Source of the DNA: Nostoc sp. TCL26-01
GTDB lineage: Bacteria; Cyanobacteriota; Cyanobacteriia; Cyanobacteriales; Nostocaceae
Reading direction: 5' to 3'
NCBI RefSeq assembly: GCF_013393945.1
Contig: NZ_CP040297.1
Span: 5,886,809-5,918,808, forward strand
DNA length: 32,000 nucleotides
Part shown: in pieces, positions 8,870 through 19,950 of the stretch
How the letters are laid out: each line of letters opens with the position of its first letter
How positions within the stretch are numbered: the stretch's first letter is position 1
Notes under the pieces: model-generated
The model's database searches: none
Told to the model about the DNA's origin: nothing
What the model saw: only the letters and a program-made list of their open reading frames with translations
Position numbers and translations under genes: made by a program

Positions 8870-10777
8870 ATGTCAGTCGAAACTGATGGCAATGGGGAAA
8901 TTAAACCACCAGAAACTAGACCGTTTGGGGGTAGTTTCATACTGTGGTTGGCATTTCTCATTTTGTTAAATTTGATTCTGTTTGGTCAACCCCGCTATCC
9001 ACAAGTACCCTATAGTGATTTTGTTTCTCAAGTTGAGGCTGGTCAAGTTGCTCGTGTTGTCATTAGTTCTGACCGGATTGAATATGAATTAAAATCAGTA
9101 CCGACTACAGAAAAATCGCGTCAGATATTTGCTACTGTACCACTGCCAACAGATACAGAATTACCCAAAATTCTGCGACAATATAATGTCCAAGTTTCAG
9201 CTATTCCTGCTAATCACAACAGTTGGATTTCTATTTTACTCAGTTGGATATTACCACCATTGATTTTTATTTTCATTTGGGGTTTTTTAATTAGCCGAAG
9301 TCAGATGGGAGGGCCAGCCGCTTTAACAATTGGTAAAAGCAATGCCCGCATTTATGGACAAGGTACAACAGGGGTAACTTTCAATGATGTGGCTGGTGTT
9401 GACGAAGCCAAAGCCGAACTACAAGAAATTGTTGATTTTCTCAAAAATGCCGCTAAATACACTCGCTTGGGCGCAAAAATCCCCAAGGGTGTGTTATTAA
9501 TCGGCCCTCCAGGTACAGGTAAAACATTACTAGCAAAAGCGATCGCAGGTGAAGCGGGAGTGCCGTTTTTTAGTATTTCTGGCTCAGAATTTATCGAGTT
9601 ATTTGTGGGTATTGGTGCAGCACGGGTACGTAATTTATTTGAGCAAGCCAAACAACAAGCGCCTTGTATCGTGTTTATTGATGAGTTAGATGCTTTAGGT
9701 AAATCACGAGGCGGAACTGGCCCGATTATCGGTGGTAATGATGAGCGAGAACAAACTCTCAACCAATTACTATCGGAAATGGATGGTTTTGATCCCAACA
9801 CAGGTGTGATTTTGTTAGCTGCAACCAACCGTCCAGAAGTGTTAGATCCGGCGTTGCGTCGTCCTGGTCGATTTGACAGGCAAATTTTGGTAGACCATCC
9901 AGATAAAATAGGCAGAGAAGCTATTCTCAAAATTCATGCCAAATACGTCAAGTTAGCCACTGATGTAGACTTAACTAAATTAGCTGCCAGAACTCCCGGA
10001 TTTGCTGGCGCAGATTTAGCCAACCTCGTCAATGAAGCCGCACTCTTAGCAGCCCGACGCAACCATGAACAGGTGATTATGGCTGATTTCCAGGAAGCAA
10101 TTGAGCGATTGTTAACAGGTTTAGAGAAAAAGTCACGGGTATTGAGTGAAATGGAGAAGAAAACAGTTGCCTATCATGAAGTTGGTCATGCGTTGATTGG
10201 GGTTTTAATGCCTAGTGCAGGGAGTGTGGAAAAAATTTCTGTTGTACCGCGTGGTATAGGTGCGTTGGGCTATACATTGCAATTACCAGAAGAAGACCGT
10301 TTTTTGATGACAGAAGATGAAATTCGTGGCAGAATTGTTGCTCTTTTAGGTGGACGTTCGGCAGAAGAATTAACTTTTGGCAGGGTTTCTACTGGTGCTA
10401 GCGATGATATTCAAAAAGCCACTGATTTAGCTGAACGGTTTGTCACACTCTATGGTATGAGTCAGAAACTAGGGCCAATTGCCTTTGAGAAGATACAACA
10501 ACAGTTTTTAGAAGGGTTTACTAATCCTCGTCGGCCAGTGAGTCAAAAGATTTCTGAGGTGATTGATTGGGAAGTAAAAGAAATAGTGGATGGGGCGCAT
10601 CAAATTGCTTTGAAGATTTTGATAACTAATCAAGAACTATTACGAGAAACATCTGAAATCTTATTAGAAAAGGAAGTTTTGGAGGGGGAAGAATTGCGAT
10701 CGCATCTCCACCGTGTCCAAAAACCCCCAGAAATGGATGAATGGTTGCAAACAGGATTGCTTTCTTTGCCAGCGTAG
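8870..10777 (+). CDS. ftsH: ATP-dependent zinc metalloprotease FtsH
   Basis: Two N-terminal TM segments, Walker A GPPGTGKT, Walker [32 protein letters not shown] and zinc site HEVGHA. ATG lies 5 nt after AAGGAG. Confidence 0.95.
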
Positions 10778-13722: not shown

Positions 13723-14676
13723 ATGAATAACCAACCACTACTATCTATAGTTACGCCGACATTAGGCAAATTTTCTGATTATTGGCTAGAAAATCTTTTA
13801 AAAATCACAGGTTCTGTCCAATTCATTTTAGTTTATCCTCCCAACACCAAAATTAGAACTATAGATGACCCCAGAATTACAGTAATAATCAGTCCCTACA
13901 AAGGCGAAATGCCACAAAGATTTGTGGGTTTACTCAACGCCCAAGGAAAATATCTTTTAGCCTTAGATGACGATGACTTTGTACATCCACAAGTGACTGA
14001 CTCAGTAGCTAAATACTTTCACCGATTTCCCGAAAGTTGGGTGCTGAGATTACAAAAACTCAATATCGATATTAACGACGAAAAACGCATCAAACAACCT
14101 TGGGAACCAATACCCGACATCGAACAACTAGATATCTGTAAAAAAACACCAGAAAATCCTTATCCCTACCAAAAAGGCAACTTTCAAGGCTTATTAGAAG
14201 TTCCCATCGCGCCCTTAAACAAAAACTTTGATTGGCGTTACTTAATCTGGCCTTTCATCAACAGAAAAGACAATGACGGATATCACTTTGAAAACTTCAA
14301 TAACATCATTTGGCGCACCGACTTAATTCAACAAGCACTCCCCGAACTTTCCCAAGCCACAAAAGTTTTAGGCGCAGTCACTTGGATACCTTCAAGCGGG
14401 TTTGATAGACTGTCTGGTTTATTTGTTCAAGCTAACTTTTTCGAGAAAGATGCTATCATCGGTCACTGGATGCCGAAACCAGAACAAATCCGATACATCG
14501 ACAAAGATCCAGCCTTAAAGCCACCAAGGTTTCATGTCATTTCTGATGCGTTATTAGTCAAGCATTTTCCTCAATATGGTTATTTGTGGAATCTGGTATT
14601 TAGTAAATTATATGGTGTGCCGAGAACAGCAGGTAAGTTAATCAAGTTAAAGTTAGTGAAGAAAGCAGTAAGATAA
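13723..14676 (+). CDS. probable glycosyltransferase family 2-like protein
   Basis: N-terminal LLSIVTPTLGK and acidic motif LLALDDDDF fit a GT-A fold (DxD-like). The rest is not recognisable. Divergent from the GT4 gene. Sampled lines have low GC, about 33%. Confidence 0.55.
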   Translation: MNNQPLLSIVTPTLGKFSDYWLENLLKITGSVQFILVYPPNTKIRTIDDPRITVIISPYKGEMPQRFVGLLNAQGKYLLALDDDDFVHPQVTDSVAKYFHRFPESWVLRLQKLNIDINDEKRIKQPWEPIPDIEQLDICKKTPENPYPYQKGNFQGLLEVPIAPLNKNFDWRYLIWPFINRKDNDGYHFENFNNIIWRTDLIQQALPELSQATKVLGAVTWIPSSGFDRLSGLFVQANFFEKDAIIGHWMPKPEQIRYIDKDPALKPPRFHVISDALLVKHFPQYGYLWNLVFSKLYGVPRTAGKLIKLKLVKKAVR

Positions 14677-14705: not shown

Positions 14706-15527
14706 TTAGCGAATTTCTGCTATCTTTCTAAGTTTTTGATAGGTTTCTCTTCCAAAACTTTTAATTTTATATTCTCCAGATTTAGTTGATTTGTCTAGAT
14801 TTTTCCAAGTTAAACCTTGGTTAGATTTTAGCCAATACTTAACAGCTTCTAATGCAGCCGAAATTTGCTTAGAATACATTCCAGCATCTTTTAATTTTTC
14901 TTCTATTTCCTCATGAGTTGCTGTTAATAAATTTATTTTTGGTGGTAAAGGGGGATCAATTTTTTGAATAAGTATTTCCAACTTAGATAATAATTGATTT
15001 AATTGGTTTTCAATAGTTATGATTTTTTCATCAAAATTAAATTTTTCTTTTGTCTGACTAGTAGCAGATACTAGTTGGTTTAATTTGGTATAAATTGGGG
15101 TTATTTTTTGATCAATTAATTTACCAATATCTGTATGTTGGGTTTCATCTATTCCAAAATGACTGTCGCTACTCAGCAACTGCTGCATTTCTTCTTTAGC
15201 AGCAGCAGCTTGCTCGTTTGTCATATCAAATACCCAAACCCAGAGTTTCTCAATATCAAGTTCTTTAGCAATTAAACACCAATCAGCACCGTAGACAAGC
15301 TCATATTCTTCTTCTTCAGTGTATGCTTCAGTACGGCGTACAATGAGAGGAATTAAATTACTCTTATGTTGATTTAGAGAATCTTCTATTATCTGACGAC
15401 TTTCTAACGAAATATTTTGTTGTTCAGAATCAGGTATGGCAATTTGAAAAGTATAAACCTGACCATGACTAATTGGTTCAATACCTAAATTTGCTCGAAT
15501 ACGAGAGCGGCGTTCTGAACTATCCAT
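14706..15527 (-). CDS. ParB/Srx-like N-terminal domain protein with degenerate arginine box, central coiled coil and C-terminal ComEA-like helix-hairpin-helix
   Basis: aa 40-100, SLESRQIIEDSLNQHKSNLIPLIVRRTE..YELVYGADWCLIAKELDIEKLWVWVF, aligns by eye to ParB box I/II (L..SI...G...P..VR...Y.IIAGERRxRAAK..G....V) with GERR replaced by GADW. aa about 195-273, INLLTATHEEIEEKL.DAG...KQISAALEAVKYW...GLTWKNLD...KIKSFGRETYQKL, resembles the ComEA HhH_3 pattern INtAt.eeL..lpGIG...A..I..yR...G.F.s.edL..v.GiG.kt.ekl. The ATG overlaps the upstream stop by 8 nt (ATGGATAG). Confidence 0.6.
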   Translation of the reverse strand: MDSSERRSRIRANLGIEPISHGQVYTFQIAIPDSEQQNISLESRQIIEDSLNQHKSNLIPLIVRRTEAYTEEEEYELVYGADWCLIAKELDIEKLWVWVFDMTNEQAAAAKEEMQQLLSSDSHFGIDETQHTDIGKLIDQKITPIYTKLNQLVSATSQTKEKFNFDEKIITIENQLNQLLSKLEILIQKIDPPLPPKINLLTATHEEIEEKLKDAGMYSKQISAALEAVKYWLKSNQGLTWKNLDKSTKSGEYKIKSFGRETYQKLRKIAEIR

Positions 15528-17031
15528 TATTTTTTAAATCTCCATTTGTAATTTGAATTAAATGATTAGCTAAATTTATATACCGTTCTAAAACTTTTTG
15601 TGCAGCTTCTTTATCTTGAGATGTTAACCTATCGTCAAATTCACCTTGATACAGTGGATATCCTTTATCTTGACAAACAGAAACAATATTCAGACGCGGA
15701 ATCCAAGTAGTTTCTGGAAAAAGCTCCACTTTGTTCATTCCACCGCTCTTTTCTAAGATATCAAAAAGTCTTACAACCATAGACTTGTTATAACTGGAAG
15801 ATTTTTGATCATACATACTAACAGCTATCCCTAAAATAGGTAAAGGTTCATCTGTTAACTGCTCTACCTCATTTGTTCTATCCAATACATATTCCAAAGC
15901 TCGAATTGCATACGCTGATAACTGAGTAGGAATCAGGATAGCTGATGATGCCATTAACGATATACTGTTAACTTTACCAAAAGAGGGAGGTGGATCGATA
16001 AGTACAAAATCATAATCATGTTTTTTCAGTTTTTTTGCTAATAAACGATCACTATCTACTGTCTGGTTAAGAGTAGTTTCCATTCGACTCAAGCGAATAT
16101 GTGATGGAACTAAGTCTAATTGAACATCTCCCCAACTTGTTGTAACTATTGTGTCTTCTAACTTAGTTCTAGGTTCAGTCAGTAGATGGGTAATATCTTT
16201 TTTTCCTTTCTGCTCAATGTCATCCAATGGATCTATTCCTAGTCCCATTGTCAAGTTAGCTTGAGCATCAATATCAATTAGCAAGACACGCTTACCTAGC
16301 TTGTTTAAAGCAGCAGCAAGATTTATAGTAGTAGTTGTTTTTCCTACGCCTCCTTTGTTATTAAATACTGTAATAATCATCGATTTTTTGTCCTTCTTAA
16401 TATTTGAAAGTTCAACTTTTTCTTCTGTAGTCTGCTGATTTGGTGCAGAATTTGCTTTAGTTTTGTTAAATAAACCCAGCATACCTTCTTGTTTTAATGC
16501 TTGCGAAATTGAATTTAAAAACTGTAACCGAATATTTTGTTGAGTTTTATACACAATAGATGTAAAGTTTAAATAAGTTTTTTTAGATAAAACTTTATGA
16601 AACAGGCTGTATTTATCAATAAGAGTTGGTTGTGAATACTCTGCTATCGTTGTAATTTTTTCTTCACAATTATAAAGTATACGAAAGTTATAACCATTGG
16701 TTAATAGACCAAGAACAGATCCTGTACTCCTCATATAATTATTAATCTGCCAAACACTGTGAGCAATGTTCTTACTAGGTGCTTTTACTTCAATAATTAA
16801 ATAAGCAGGTATGACTAACTTTGAGTCTGGTTGCCCTACTAAAAAATCAAGTTTGGATTGTAAAACTACTACTTGAGATTGCCAGTCAGCACTAGTATAT
16901 CCAAGAATACGCAAGAGAGGAATTACCACTTTTTGCTCAACATCAGACTCATTACTACTTAATGTAATTGCTCGAAAAATGTTTTGCAGAGTTGAGATGT
17001 AATCAGCATTCATACTACCATAGTAATACAT
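15520..17031 (-). CDS. fusion protein: N-terminal HsdR-N-type PD-(D/E)xK nuclease-like domain + C-terminal ParA/Soj/MinD-family deviant Walker A ATPase
   Basis: aa about 25-120: E32, D62 (KLDFLV), E81-x-K83 (IIEVK), Q95 (WQINNY) and TNGYNF, the layout of type I restriction enzyme R-subunit N-terminal (HSDR_N/HSDR_N_2) domains. aa 218-503: NNKGGVGKTT (K226, K231), LLIDIDAQANLT and FVLIDPPPS, which are ParA Walker A, A' and B. ATG at 17031; an alternative ATG at 17013. Confidence 0.8.
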   Translation of the reverse strand: MYYYGSMNADYISTLQNIFRAITLSSNESDVEQKVVIPLLRILGYTSADWQSQVVVLQSKLDFLVGQPDSKLVIPAYLIIEVKAPSKNIAHSVWQINNYMRSTGSVLGLLTNGYNFRILYNCEEKITTIAEYSQPTLIDKYSLFHKVLSKKTYLNFTSIVYKTQQNIRLQFLNSISQALKQEGMLGLFNKTKANSAPNQQTTEEKVELSNIKKDKKSMIITVFNNKGGVGKTTTTINLAAALNKLGKRVLLIDIDAQANLTMGLGIDPLDDIEQKGKKDITHLLTEPRTKLEDTIVTTSWGDVQLDLVPSHIRLSRMETTLNQTVDSDRLLAKKLKKHDYDFVLIDPPPSFGKVNSISLMASSAILIPTQLSAYAIRALEYVLDRTNEVEQLTDEPLPILGIAVSMYDQKSSSYNKSMVVRLFDILEKSGGMNKVELFPETTWIPRLNIVSVCQDKGYPLYQGEFDDRLTSQDKEAAQKVLERYINLANHLIQITNGDLKNNG

Positions 17032-17042
17032 TTAGTTGTATC

Positions 17043-17073
17043 ATTATATCCCAAAATGTTTACTGTGTAGCAA
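17043..17073 (-). promoter_or_regulatory. putative sigma70-type promoter of the nuclease-ParA/ParB-like cassette (consensus -10 TATAAT, weak -35 TTGCTA at 19-nt spacing)
   Basis: Minus strand reads TTGCTAcacagtaaacattttgggaTATAATgatacaactaaATG. The -10 (17048..17043) lies only 11 nt from the ATG, implying a near-leaderless transcript. Sequence only, no experimental support. Confidence 0.3.
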
Positions 17074-17082
17074 ATTTTGCTT

Positions 17083-17355
17083 TCATTGAAAAAACATTAA
17101 GCTCTCTGGAAAATCGTTAGGTAAGGCGTACATATCAAACATTGTAGTGGCGATCGCTGTTTTGTCTTCCAAGCACTTACGATTTAATTGGGGCTTGATT
17201 TTGGCATAACTGACCACCCCACCCTTACCAGTAGAACTGGTTTTGACAAGAATCGGATTGAGGTAGATATTTTTCTCTAGAAAATACCCGTAAAGCAATT
17301 CTCTAACAAAAGTTTCCTCAGTTTGCCCTTCTACAAAAACATTGACTCGAATCAT
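17083..17355 (-). CDS. DUF4276-family (Toprim-like) protein, apparently 3'-truncated remnant
   Basis: MIRVNVFVEGQTEETFVRELL matches the DUF4276/Toprim N-terminal (V/L)VEGxTEE motif; later GGVVSYAKIKPQL and TTMFDMYALPNDFP. Only 90 aa from ATG 17355, whereas I recall family members being roughly twice that length. This ATG overlaps the upstream TGA (ATGA). The ORF ends exactly at a GC-content breakpoint. Confidence 0.6.
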   Translation of the reverse strand: MIRVNVFVEGQTEETFVRELLYGYFLEKNIYLNPILVKTSSTGKGGVVSYAKIKPQLNRKCLEDKTAIATTMFDMYALPNDFPESLMFFQ

Positions 17356-18440
17356 CGTGCTGGTCTCCCGCCTAGAAGATTCTTCCGCCAAAGCTCACCC
17401 AAGCTATAATCTAATAGCCATGCTGACAACTCATCCTGATTCAGCCTGCGTAGGGAGGATGTCCCTTGATTACGGTCTACAACAATCACATCGTTAGCCA
17501 CAAATTCGTTGAGCAGTTCGACGGACTGAGTAGAAACAATCACTTGTTTAGAGGCAGTACGCATCAGCGCAGCCAGCACTGTAATAGCATAGGGATGAAG
17601 TCCTAGTTCTGGCTCATCAACTAGAATAGTTTCTGGCTGGAGGTCTTCAGGTTGTAGAAAAACCGTTGCTAAACACATAAAACGCAGCGTACCATCCGAA
17701 AGCAAGTGTGCCTTAAACGGAATATCCTGTCCTCGCTCAAACCATTCCAACTCAATCACTTCCTTGTTTTGAGGAACAGGACGCAGATAAAAGTCCCCAA
17801 AGAACGGTGCAACAAGCCGAATGGTTTTGATGATTCTTTGATAGGATGCCGGGTAACTGTCACGCAACAGATAGAGAAAGGATGCAAGGTTGCGGGCATC
17901 AGGACGCAGATAAGCATTGTCATTGATACCGTGCAGTTGTTTTATGTAAGCACTGTCACTCGTATCATGAAAATGATAAACTCGCCATTGCTGCATGGCT
18001 GACAAAACATACTGATTAATTTGGGTTTCTGTGCCAGTGAAAGCTTTTGTCTCAAAATGACCTCTACCTAGTTCATGTTCACCACTCATGTTCCACCAAA
18101 AGGATTCTCTAGCGAACATCAAGCGATTATCTTTGGTTGCTTCCAAGGTGGCGAAGTACCCATTATCACCGAAGTATAGCTGAAACTCTAATTGCTCCGT
18201 TGTTTTCCTGCCAAAATGCAATAAGGCATCAGGACTGCCTTGGCGACTGACAAAAACTTGTAGGTTCTGCTCCAGCAACTGCCCAACCATGCGGAAGAAG
18301 CCGATAAAATTGGATTTTCCTGCCCCATTAGCGCCAATCAAAATATTCAGTCTGGAGAATTCCAAGTCACACGAGGCAATTGACTTGAAGCCTTTTAAGA
18401 CTATTCTCGACAATTGTTTGTTACTGTTCATCCCCGTCAT
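17352..18440 (-). CDS. ABC/SMC-type 'AAA family' ATPase (AAA_21/AAA_15-like, OLD/PARIS AriA-like class)
   Basis: Walker A IGANGAGKSNF, ABC signature-like LSDGTLRFMCL, Walker B ILVDEPELGLHP and H-loop STQS. ATG 18440 lies 8 nt after GGAG; the ORF track opens at TTG 18455. Confidence 0.85.
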   Translation of the reverse strand: MTGMNSNKQLSRIVLKGFKSIASCDLEFSRLNILIGANGAGKSNFIGFFRMVGQLLEQNLQVFVSRQGSPDALLHFGRKTTEQLEFQLYFGDNGYFATLEATKDNRLMFARESFWWNMSGEHELGRGHFETKAFTGTETQINQYVLSAMQQWRVYHFHDTSDSAYIKQLHGINDNAYLRPDARNLASFLYLLRDSYPASYQRIIKTIRLVAPFFGDFYLRPVPQNKEVIELEWFERGQDIPFKAHLLSDGTLRFMCLATVFLQPEDLQPETILVDEPELGLHPYAITVLAALMRTASKQVIVSTQSVELLNEFVANDVIVVDRNQGTSSLRRLNQDELSAWLLDYSLGELWRKNLLGGRPAR

Positions 18441-18585
18441 AGAACAGTCTCCCAATAAACAGGATTTTTAGCTGCTAGTTTCATTTTATTTTGTATATGA
18501 GTATATTTAATTTTGTTCAGCCATTTAACGCAGACAAGTTGGTAATTAGATCACAATAGATATGTAGCCTGTTGTTTATCCAACC

Positions 18586-19950
18586 TTGAATCAACCTAAC
18601 TCCGTGGGAAATTTGCAAGAAACTCATTTAAACCGCGCCCGTGCCAGTCTTAGACAAGCACTGTCTTGGTATGGATATCTTCGCAAGTCAGGACATTTAT
18701 CATCTAACCCAGAATTGGCTGGTTTTGTGAAGCCAGAATTGGAAATATTAAACGCCACACTCAGCAAGCTAGACTCTAATGTGATTAGAATTGCCGTTTT
18801 TGGGTTAGTGAGTCGGGGTAAGTCGGCGGTGTTGAATGCCTTGCTGGGGAGTAAGATTTTGCAGACTGGCCCCCTTAATGGTGTGACGCAATGGCCGCGT
18901 TCTGTGCGCTGGCAACCGGGTGACAAGGTGATAGTAGAATTAATTGATACACCTGGGCTGGATGAGATTCAGGGAGAGTCACGGGCAAAAATGGCGCGGG
19001 ATGTGGTGCAGCAGGCTGATTTGATTTTGTTTGTAGTATCTGGTGATATTACCCGGACTGAATACCAAACACTGTTAGAATTAAGACATGCGCAAAAACC
19101 ATTGATTTTGGTATTTAATAAGATTGATTTATACCCGGATACAGACAGGGGAGCAATTTATCAAAATCTACAACAACTAGGTGCGGGGAATCCCCAAGCC
19201 AAGCCTTTGTTACCAGATGAAATTGTCATGGTGGCGGCGGAACCTGCACCGATGGAAGTCAGGGTGGAATGGCCTGATGGGAGGGTGAGTTACGAATGGG
19301 AAACACCACCGCCACAGGTACATGAACTTAGACAGACTATTTTAAACATTCTCAACCGAGAAGGCCGATCGCTCTTAGCTTTAAATGCCCTAATTCAAGC
19401 ACGGGATGCCGAAGCAGCGATCGCTCAAAAAACTATTGACATCCGCCAACAAGAAGCGGAAGATATCATCTGGCAATTTACTAAGTACAAAGCCCTGGCT
19501 GTGGGGTTAAATCCTGTGGCTTTTTTAGATATCATCGGGGGAACCTTTGCTGATTTAGCGCTGATACGTTCCTTAGCACGGTTGTATGGCTTGCCCATGA
19601 CTAGCTTTGAAGCTGGGAAAGTTTTTAAAACCATTTTATTCAGTTCTGGTGGCTTATTACTGGGAGAATTGGCTAGTGGTTTGCTCTTTGGTTTAGGTAA
19701 GAGTACTGCGGCCTTAACCAGTGGGGATAATCCTACCAATATTACTGCCTTTGCGGGGAGTGCGATCGCTCAAGCCGGAATCGCTGGTTATGGAGCCTAT
19801 GCTGTGGGGAAAGCTGCCCAAATATATCTAGAAAAAGGCTGCACTTGGGGACAATTAGGTGCTAGTACTGTCATTCAAGAAATCCTTTCACAAGTAGATA
19901 AAAATACAATTCTGTATCGGTTGCAACAAGAATTAGGTATGAAATATTGA
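18586..19950 (+). CDS. GTP-binding protein with C-terminal DUF697 membrane-associated domain
   Basis: G1 GLVSRGKSAVLNALLG, G3 DTPGLDE, G4 NKIDL and a glycine/alanine-rich hydrophobic C-terminus typical of DUF697. Start uncertain: TTG 18586, GTG 18604 or TTG 18613. Confidence 0.8.
   Translation: MNQPNSVGNLQETHLNRARASLRQALSWYGYLRKSGHLSSNPELAGFVKPELEILNATLSKLDSNVIRIAVFGLVSRGKSAVLNALLGSKILQTGPLNGVTQWPRSVRWQPGDKVIVELIDTPGLDEIQGESRAKMARDVVQQADLILFVVSGDITRTEYQTLLELRHAQKPLILVFNKIDLYPDTDRGAIYQNLQQLGAGNPQAKPLLPDEIVMVAAEPAPMEVRVEWPDGRVSYEWETPPPQVHELRQTILNILNREGRSLLALNALIQARDAEAAIAQKTIDIRQQEAEDIIWQFTKYKALAVGLNPVAFLDIIGGTFADLALIRSLARLYGLPMTSFEAGKVFKTILFSSGGLLLGELASGLLFGLGKSTAALTSGDNPTNITAFAGSAIAQAGIAGYGAYAVGKAAQIYLEKGCTWGQLGASTVIQEILSQVDKNTILYRLQQELGMKY

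Follow-up and report, generated by a model that had tools for sequence, protein, structure and literature searches.

The 32,000-nucleotide stretch of DNA analysed in this work (positions 5,886,809 to 5,918,808 of contig NZ_CP040297.1 from the cyanobacterium Nostoc sp. TCL26-01, referred to below as the window) contains a gene for a protein of 273 amino acids, which directly follows a gene for a ParA-type ATPase fused to a nuclease-like domain. We propose that the 273-amino-acid protein, termed here the partner, is a dedicated partner of the nuclease-fused ParA, built on a ParB fold that would work independently of cytidine triphosphate (CTP). To this explanation, taken jointly, i.e. including the loss of the clamp, dimerisation, tethering and gating of ParA, we assign a probability of about 0.6.

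The ParB-fold domain and its nucleotide pocket

By direct single-sequence search the partner has no match in Pfam, NCBIfam, PADLOC or the Protein Data Bank (PDB). A profile of the full-length protein matched only coiled-coil proteins in the PDB, which we regard as artefacts, and for this reason the partner was profiled domain by domain. In the AlphaFold2 (AF2) model built with the family alignment, residues 18-121 have a predicted local distance difference test (pLDDT) score of about 90, and the Foldseek search of this N-terminal domain (N-domain) against the PDB reveals similarity, at a probability of about 1.0, to Noc, ParB-CDP, ParB-CTPγS, the N-terminal part of pNOB8 ParB (ParB-N), PadC, KorB, sulfiredoxin (Srx), SbnI and SerK. 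Noc (7ol9) is the top structural match of the N-domain and at the same time the sole match in the PDB at the level of sequence profiles. The comparison with hhalign of the N-domain profile from our family alignment A2 with the ParB N-domains of B. subtilis, M. xanthus and T. thermophilus, the sequences of which had been verified against the PDB, yielded a probability of 89.9% and an E-value of 1.7e-6. Thus, structure prediction, structural comparison and profile alignment together confirm the predicted ParB/Srx fold of the N-domain. Among the 55 homologues of our first alignment (A1), 22 match the Pfam family PF02195 (ParB_N) at E <=0.01, the best of them at 3e-6, while the query itself does not match it even at E <=1; judging from these relatives, the N-domain is homologous to ParB_N yet lies below the Pfam cut-off. 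It is also much more acidic, with a net charge of -14 compared to -1 to -6 in canonical ParB N-domains.

The motifs of the ParB nucleotide pocket are replaced in the partner. In the HMMER search, the N-domain profile from A2 aligned its segment 'YevvyGadwllvakeld' to 'YELIAGERRWRAVQSLE' of B. subtilis Noc ('YELIAGERRW'), and hhalign agrees with this register, placing G80-A-D-W83 on G77-E-R-R80 of B. subtilis ParB, i.e. on the P-motif GERR (GxxR, Box II). In 217 family sequences the fourth position of this box is occupied by W in 194 cases and never by R, and the third position by D or E in 208. At the level of species, Box II reads GADW in 56 of the 80 species-level loci and GVDW, GAEW or GSDW in 13 others, and GxxR is found in none. 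Box I of ParB ('YQPRK') falls in the hhalign alignment on the non-conserved 'DSEQQ' of the partner, and Box III (ENxxR) has no counterpart in the extended alignment, where the corresponding helix reads KEEMQQLL, with neither N nor R, the confidence of the alignment being low in that region.

The replacement does not look like erosion. The positions conserved best among 129 non-redundant members are N57 (128/129), located in the loop equivalent to the ParB C-motif, G80 (128/129), E76, Y75, A87 and R64 (122/129), with W83 and D/E82 close behind. Because the replacing positions are the most conserved ones in the family, the conservation pattern indicates that the pocket is remodelled under selection rather than decayed. 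A recent survey of ParB folds reported that those which bind nucleoside triphosphates (NTPs) almost invariably have the GxxR P-motif, that the substitution of its arginine by alanine abolishes binding, that ATP or GTP can be bound besides CTP, and that no NTP was bound by 17 of the 28 ParB-fold proteins examined (PMC12704722). The inferred loss of CTP clamping can be regarded as well founded, since it follows from this survey and from the absence of the GxxR arginine from 217/217 family sequences.

Neither a helix-turn-helix (HTH) nor a ribbon-helix-helix (RHH) domain was found in the partner, either with Pfam or in the AF2 model, in which a linker and a coiled coil come immediately after the ParB fold. 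The search for a centromere covered the window as well as the operon and its surroundings in orthologous loci. The window contains no canonical parS within 3 mismatches, and no meaningful tandem, direct, inverted or dispersed repeats around the cassette. Over 62-67 loci, palindromes are enriched neither upstream of the pair (13 loci vs 12 in shuffled sequences) nor inside the genes (0.61 vs 0.63 per pair in shuffled sequences), and no k-mers are enriched across loci in or around the pair beyond the context of the promoter, the ribosome-binding site and the start codon, which is all that the upstream and downstream regions of orthologous loci have in common. Because the three boxes are replaced, and neither an HTH nor centromere-like repeats nearby were found, a CTP-gated clamp of the partner on parS appears very unlikely.

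These results agree in most respects with an earlier, sequence-only reading of this DNA, which had described the N-terminal half as ParB-like, noted that the GERRxRAA box is changed to GADWCLIA without any arginines, saw no parS-like inverted repeats flanking the cassette, and considered a CTP-dependent sliding clamp on parS unlikely. The structural and profile comparisons, which it had proposed as a check, did recover the ParB/Srx fold. Its description of the arginine box as "lost" is appropriate for the arginine of the P-motif itself; it does not extend to the pocket as a whole, in which the highly conserved N57, R64, G80, D/E82 and W83 have taken the place of the canonical residues.

Terminal helix, coiled coil and C-domains

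The N-domain is preceded by a basic amphipathic helix, in which I10 and L14 are kept in at least 117 of the 129 non-redundant members, and R6 is conserved in at least 75% of these members and in at least 90% of the sequences in alignments A1 and A2. The pattern of this helix in the family is ERRxRIxxxL(G/R)I(K/E)P, and the canonical ParA-binding motif LG-(R/K)-GL is not present in the N-terminus of the partner. In analogy to the N-termini of ParB, ParG, SopB and McdB, the basic helix, with R6, I10 and L14, is likely to be the peptide that contacts ParA, and it is a candidate for the stimulation of the ATPase.

On the C-terminal side of the ParB fold, a linker (residues 122-135, pLDDT <50) leads to two helices (134-158 and 165-190), which AF2 predicts with lower confidence. 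By direct reading, the hydrophobic residues of the stretch 'IENQLNQLLSKLEILIQKI' are spaced 3-4-3-4, as expected of heptads, and on the basis of the model the coiled coil is probably a dimerisation spacer. The protein ends with a small basic domain of four predicted helices (C-domain). Its top match in the Foldseek search is RlmN from E. coli (5hr7_A; TMq 0.58, root-mean-square deviation 3.0 over 78 columns, probability 0.75, E 0.67), with glycosylases of the HhH-GPD type (HhH, helix-hairpin-helix) and N-domains of integrases lower in the list. The N-terminal sequence of RlmN, verified before alignment, is 29% identical to the C-domain over 77 columns in pairwise BLASTP (E 2e-4) and is aligned by hhalign with an E-value of 0.0019 and a probability of 14%; its residues 17-80 are colinear, weakly, with the C-domain, along the pattern KINLL...KD(L/A)G...W...N(F/L)D...KL(K/R)x(V/I)AEIR. 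Cfr is structurally near-identical to RlmN, and its N-terminal domain has been described as an HhH2 fold, typical of proteins that bind DNA or RNA without sequence specificity (PMC13001441). From the model, we consider the HhH fold class plausible for the C-domain.

A more specific assignment of the C-domain, to the ComEA/HHH_3 family, found no support. None of the 31 query-type C-domains matches Pfam HHH_3 (PF12836) at E <=1, two hhalign comparisons of the query-type C-domain with the HHH_3-type C-domains of relatives gave colinear alignments with probabilities of 3.3% and 3.9%, and the glycine-hydrophobic-glycine hairpins are not visible in the query by direct reading. The likeness to ComEA/HHH_3 consists in the position and size of the C-domain, which are the same as those of the HHH_3 domain in the relatives. 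As for the three elements outside the ParB fold, the sequence-only reading had pointed to the basic N-terminal stretch, which is indeed present and conserved, and to a heptad-rich middle helix, quoted as 'ENQLNQLLSKLEILIQKI', which is borne out by the AF2 helices and by the spacing of the hydrophobic residues. It had also attributed the last 80 or so amino acids to ComEA/HhH_3; of this claim there remains a small basic four-helix domain with a weak HhH2 likeness of the RlmN/Cfr kind, and the ComEA/HHH_3 label is not supported.

Comparison of the homologues reveals that the C-domain is the least constant part of the partner. In alignment A1 conservation is high over the first ~120 residues, the middle part varies in length, and the C-terminus is of several types: Pfam detects Rho_N in 7 of the 55 aligned homologues and HHH_3 in 3. 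HHH_3 C-domains are also present in distant family members. Over the 80 loci, the query-type C-terminus was counted 38 times, the Rho_N-like type 30 times and HHH_3 5 times, and 11 C-termini were undetected or truncated; all three types of C-domain are basic. The most instructive case is provided by three Nostoc loci (L001, L006 and L008), which share the gene order zinc-ribbon gene, ParA fusion, partner and family-2 glycosyltransferase (GT2), and in which the partner ends in the query-type, the HHH_3 or the Rho_N C-domain. Among these genomes the flanking GT2 is 91-95% identical, the ParA fusion 79-90% and the N-domain of the partner 69-81%, compared to 20-37% for the rest of the partner. Judging from these alignments, the C-domain is exchanged like a cassette between close relatives. 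Since small nucleic-acid-binding modules interchange on a constant N-domain, a generic tether is indicated rather than a protein reading a conserved centromere, and the C-domain is a probable sequence-independent tether to nucleic acid. The non-specific DNA binding suggested in the sequence-only reading is thereby supported indirectly.

Features of the partner gene, the ParA-fusion gene and their promoter-like region (AF2, AlphaFold2; pI, isoelectric point; ORF, open reading frame)
Feature	Position in the window	Strand	Basis or properties
ParB-fold partner gene	14706..15527	(-)	273 amino acids; ORF list
Residues 1-16, basic amphipathic helix (MDSSERRSRIRANLGI)	15480..15527	(-)	pI 11.5; AF2 helix 3-14
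Residues 17-121, predicted ParB/Srx-fold domain, net charge -14, without Box I/II/III motifs	15165..15479	(-)	AF2, Foldseek, hhalign
G80-A81-D82-W83, in place of the ParB P-motif GERR (GxxR)	15279..15290	(-)	Translation and alignments
Residues 122-192, disordered acidic linker, then coiled coil of variable length	14952..15164	(-)	AF2; alignment A1
Residues 196-273, basic four-helix C-domain, HhH2-like	14709..14942	(-)	AF2 pLDDT 97; charge +6, pI 9.6
Gene for the fusion of PD-(D/E)XK (HSDR_N_2) with a ParA/MinD-type ATPase	15520..17031	(-)	503-amino-acid ORF; Pfam
Nuclease-like N-domain: E28, D62, E81-x-K83, Q95-x-x-x-Y99	16657..16974	(-)	Translation and conservation
ParA ATPase domain, deviant Walker A NKGGVGKTT	15523..16386	(-)	Pfam/NCBIfam and conservation
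Promoter-like TTGCTA-N19-TATAAT 5' of the pair (tentative)	17043..17073	(-)	Sequence and upstream alignment

The nuclease-fused ParA and the cyanobacterial family

The partner gene and the ParA-fusion gene located upstream of it overlap by 8 nucleotides, at the start codon of the former and the stop codon of the latter (ATGGATAG), and the two genes are translationally coupled. In the ParA fusion, Pfam detects AAA_31 (5e-46), CbiA and ParA at residues 218-410 and HSDR_N_2 (5e-6) at residues 28-119, and NCBIfam also reports a match to the ParA family. The annotated reading frame seems to begin 6 codons early; the real start is probably M7 at position 17013, giving 497 amino acids, because the RefSeq models of orthologues have 497 amino acids and the context of this start is conserved. 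The promoter-like element upstream of the pair aligns with TTTACA...TAGAAT/TACAAT in the orthologous loci of Nostoc; the consensus promoter scan did not call it, because its spacer is 19 nucleotides long.

In the 68 homologues of the ParA fusion the Walker A motif is invariant, and each of the residues of the nuclease-like motifs is at least 95% conserved. The combination of E, D, ExK and QxxxY constitutes the motif set of PD-(D/E)XK nucleases of the RecB/HsdR type. The nuclease-like domain also gives weak matches to Cas4, PDDEXK_3 and HSDR_N, the N-terminal region of the fusion has no match in the PDB, and one orthologue is annotated by the Joint Genome Institute (JGI) as 'BcsQ/predicted type IV restriction endonuclease'. 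The nuclease domain apparently is intact in its motifs, which is unusual for a ParA protein, and this motif set, on which the sequence-only reading did not remark, is the main reason why we keep a reading other than partition open.

Searches of 5.8 billion clusters identified 224 homologues of the partner, mostly annotated as 'hypothetical'; all of those with a named source are cyanobacterial, including members of Nostoc, Calothrix, Scytonema, Oscillatoria, Kamptonema, Phormidium and Leptolyngbyaceae. With the N-domain profile, HMMER found 132 proteins at E <=1e-3 among 1.84 billion representative proteins, 113 of them at E <=1e-10, and canonical ParBs with the GERR motif first appear at E-values of ~1e-5 to 5e-4. 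By these searches the partner family is a discrete clade, amounting to ~130 clusters at 50% identity. It is found mostly in the orders of filamentous cyanobacteria, with ~83 species matched by a pattern scan.

The pairing with the ParA fusion is nearly universal: in ~70 of the 80 species loci a ParA fusion of ~480-520 amino acids ends between -13 and +29 nucleotides from the start of the partner, and the loci without an adjacent full-length fusion are mostly contig ends or frameshifts. The suggestion of the sequence-only reading that the protein is a partner of the fusion ATPase is strongly supported by this arrangement. Clustering of the open reading frames over the 80 loci revealed that only the ParA fusion and the partner are conserved together (in 75 and 79 loci), with no conserved third gene; the next most frequent neighbour is GT2, in 19 loci, all from Nostocales. 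The pair was found neither in 72,556 plasmids nor among the viral contigs of IMG/VR, and on the basis of these searches a plasmid or viral origin was ruled out. Sequence identity tracks taxonomy, the Nostoc loci are syntenic, and the inheritance of the pair looks vertical. In 62/62 loci the AT content of the pair exceeds that of its flanks, with a mean GC content of 0.383 vs 0.452 (0.325 vs 0.407 in the window).

Some of the relatives display additional arrangements. In some Oscillatoriales the same operon also encodes a longer paralogue of the partner, with 360-382 amino acids (L020 7854-9044, L031 7085-8206, L061 3590-4690 and L063 5980-7080); it combines a GADW N-domain with a long coiled coil, a linker rich in P, K and Q, and a Rho_N-like end, and suggests two partners for one ParA. 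Two of these loci (L061 675-3097 and L063 3213-5599) also encode a divergent HSDR_N-ParA protein followed by a ParB-like protein of 303 amino acids ('IVDGDFEYYAAAKA') with an HhH-like C-terminus. The Box II region of the latter reads 'DGDFEYYAA', and the GxxR arginine is absent by eye. This ParB-like protein is one of a sister family with at least 449 members, the named ones of which come from Microcoleus or other Oscillatoriales and carry the NCBI name 'chromosome partitioning protein ParB'.

In the window, a candidate HEC-01 defence pair is located directly upstream (17083-18455, minus strand). Its A subunit is a full-length AAA_21 ATPase of 367 amino acids (PADLOC 4e-151). The B subunit (DUF4276) is truncated: its 102 amino acids match positions 1-85 of the 168-position model, and the truncation coincides with the beginning of the promoter region of the ParA fusion. 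In other genomes a zinc-ribbon gene is found in place of the HEC-01 pair. We considered the AAA_21 and DUF4276 genes as possible components of the same system as the pair, and rejected this since they represent a HEC-01 candidate that is unlinked to the pair in other genomes. A convergent GT2 of 317 amino acids is encoded at 13723-14676 (plus strand), downstream of the partner; the adjacency of GT2, limited to 19/80 loci from Nostocales only, probably reflects synteny rather than function. By reading of the translations, the frame at 8870-10777 (plus strand) encodes an FtsH-type AAA protease (GPPGTGKT ... HEVGHA), and that at 18586-19950 (plus strand) a GTPase-like protein of 454 amino acids, the C-terminal half of which is glycine-rich and hydrophobic. 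Both look like ordinary chromosomal genes. In other genomes the flanks of the pair are of the housekeeping type, with GT2, a desaturase, a Ser/Thr kinase and isoleucyl-tRNA synthetase (IleRS).

Proposed working, alternatives and known systems

According to the explanation that we favour, the partner would not be loaded at parS as a CTP-gated sliding clamp. It would dimerise through the coiled coil, and its C-domain would sit on nucleic acid, most likely on the nucleoid, without sequence specificity, while the basic N-terminal helix and the remodelled, acidic ParB-fold domain would be presented to the ParA fusion. The partner would thereby stimulate or gate ParA in its ATPase cycle, and might act in the same way on the nuclease-like domain. 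The candidate outputs are the spacing of many chromosome copies or of the nucleoid, or controlled processing of DNA. As regards the N-domain, the best-supported reading of the alignments is that the ParB fold gave up nucleotide gating and became an acidic, highly constrained interaction module.

Several observations weigh against this explanation. If the partner binds DNA everywhere, a classical ParA ratchet would have no discrete cargo to move. For the C-domain, the assignment to HhH2 is weak, given the Foldseek E-value of 0.67 and the hhalign probability of 14%. The residues that replace the nucleotide pocket are the most conserved ones in the family, so another ligand could still gate the partner. 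Finally, the intact nuclease motifs, the evolution of the pair, faster than that of its flanks, and its AT-richness in 62/62 loci could indicate conflict or defence. With respect to the output, it is tempting to consider that this ParA system serves the controlled cleavage or processing of DNA on the nucleoid and not the transport of cargo. An active nuclease of the RecB/HsdR type, fused to ParA, would then be gated by a CTP-independent ParB-fold protein, which would coat DNA non-specifically by means of interchangeable HhH2, HHH_3 or Rho_N modules, with the remodelled GADW pocket as a control surface. We regard this particular output as unlikely; if it were true, the pair might participate in the management of genome copies or in the elimination of foreign DNA in polyploid filamentous cyanobacteria.

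The observations that suggest conflict can also be taken at face value, with the pair acting as a conflict or addiction module, in which the ParA fusion would be a DNA-bound effector nuclease and the acidic ParB-fold protein its regulator or neutraliser, either a DNA-mimic-like inhibitor or a licensing sensor for foreign or surplus DNA. Such a role could account for the conservation of E28, D62, ExK and QxxxY (>=95% in 68 ParA fusions), the restriction-endonuclease name given to the JGI orthologue, the difference in charge between the N-domain and canonical ParB, the evolution of the pair at a rate exceeding that of the flanking GT2, with C-domain cassette swaps, its AT-rich composition, its detection in only ~83 species by the pattern scan, and its location next to the HEC-01 candidate in the window. 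However, the ParB-like protein has no PADLOC match and the ParA fusion has only weak, partial ones (PDC-M28B, 1.5e-9 over the Walker A region, and mad2, 0.0046), the pair is missing from the plasmid and IMG/VR collections searched, its identity tracks taxonomy in syntenic Nostoc loci, and its flanks elsewhere resemble housekeeping regions and not defence islands, all of which makes us consider a conflict module rather unlikely. The chromosomal location, the single locus and the pairing with ParA are equally the attributes of a segregation system of polyploid cyanobacteria, and the partner could be a centromere binder after all, reading specific distant sites via the C-domain or via the remodelled ParB fold. 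The sister family in Microcoleus bears a ParB name, and in other polyploids ParA is served by centromere binders that are not ParB, e.g. HpaB in Haloferax (10.1101/2025.11.19.689047). Nonetheless, we find this quite improbable, as the partner has no HTH or RHH domain, 62-67 loci show no repeats within the operon or close to it, no canonical parS was found in the window, and a conserved site is hard to reconcile with close relatives that swap the C-domain for unrelated generic modules.

Two further alternatives concern the ligands of the partner. The pocket formed by N57, R64/R65, G80, D/E82 and W83 might accommodate a Mg2+-held nucleotide, a nucleoside or another small molecule, so that the self-engagement of the N-domains would still be regulated, only by a new ligand. 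The positions equivalent to the pocket are the most conserved ones in the 129 members, as expected of such a switch, and ParB folds that accept ATP or GTP are known (PMC12704722). On the other hand, the arginine of the P-motif is absent in 217/217 sequences and its neighbour is acidic, Box III is missing, and in the same survey the replacement of the GxxR arginine abolished NTP binding and 17 of the 28 proteins tested bound none (PMC12704722); we therefore hold a ligand-gated switch to be a doubtful proposition. Alternatively, the C-domain could bind a protein assembly (e.g. cytoskeletal, septal or an organelle), which ParA would position on the nucleoid, in the manner of PadC or McdB. The structural matches include PadC (6ryk), which connects ParA with bactofilin, most of the taxa that have the family are filamentous, and two paralogous partners are present in some operons of Oscillatoriales. 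However, where another C-domain is present it is a module that binds nucleic acids (HHH_3 or Rho_N/SAP-like), the C-domains of all types are basic, and there is no conserved third gene that could encode the cargo, so that an adaptor to a cargo other than DNA seems highly improbable.

Comparison with the known systems places the CTP-independent partner that we propose between canonical ParB and a few adaptors. With ParB/Spo0J it shares the ParB/Srx fold at the N-terminus, the location of the gene directly downstream of a ParA-type ATPase, the basic N-terminal peptide and a C-terminal half predicted to dimerise; it differs in the absence of QPR, GERR (replaced by GADW) and ENxxR, in the lack of an HTH and of parS, and in the coiled coil and small HhH2-like domain that replace the canonical C-terminal dimerisation domain. 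Of the attributes of ParABS systems, the adjacent ParA with a deviant Walker A motif is present, whereas an HTH or RHH domain and a nearby centromere were not found. The N-terminal part of ParB from the Sulfolobus plasmid pNOB8 is the second-best structural match (5k5d). That ParB is an adaptor, the N-part of which contacts ParA while the C-part binds DNA non-specifically. The same adaptor logic is the working model that we propose for the partner. However, in pNOB8 a third protein, AspA, reads the centromere, whereas no third gene is conserved with the cyanobacterial pair; moreover, the C-domain is histone/CenpA-like there and HhH2-like here, and the former system is archaeal and plasmid-borne, while the latter is cyanobacterial and chromosomal. 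PadC from Myxococcus (6ryk) is likewise a ParB-fold partner of ParA that does not bind parS. Its nucleotide pocket is retained and binds CTP, and a bactofilin scaffold serves as its cargo. The cyanobacterial partner, in contrast, lacks the arginines of the pocket and resembles a nucleic-acid binder at its other end. Noc, despite being the top structural match, has no ParA partner and retains GERR, an HTH, specific NBS sites and a helix for membrane targeting (PMC12704722). Lineage-specific ParA partners of the McdB, HpaB and ParZ type are similar in that they interact with ParA through an N-terminal region and have a coiled coil in the centre (PMC7182216; 10.1101/2025.11.19.689047); on the other hand they have no ParB fold, McdB binds carboxysomes and HpaB a centromere, and no homology to the partner was detected. 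By analogy, the logic of the partner is closest to that of the adaptor-type ParB-fold proteins (pNOB8 ParB and PadC), and not to that of a clamp.

In the literature we found no study of the pair, of the N. punctiforme accessions or of HsdR-ParA fusions, and the database names of the family are limited to hypothetical and 'ParB/Sulfiredoxin domain-containing' proteins, with ParB used for the sister family. The survey of ParB-CTPase folds collected its sequences using PF02195 with --cut_ga (PMC12704722), and since the query lies below this gathering threshold, the clade probably was not sampled. What appears to be new is a pair of the ParA/ParB type that combines a ParB fold devoid of the CTP motifs and of an HTH, modular generic DNA binders and a ParA fused to a nuclease-like domain. 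The current models of ParB rest on the CTP switch, on loading at parS and on sliding. In this context, the clade can be viewed as a natural experiment on how the ParB fold may be used for ParA without CTP and without parS. It also points to an unstudied machine of the ParA family, equipped with a nuclease-like domain, in multicellular polyploid cyanobacteria, in which the management of chromosome copies is poorly understood.

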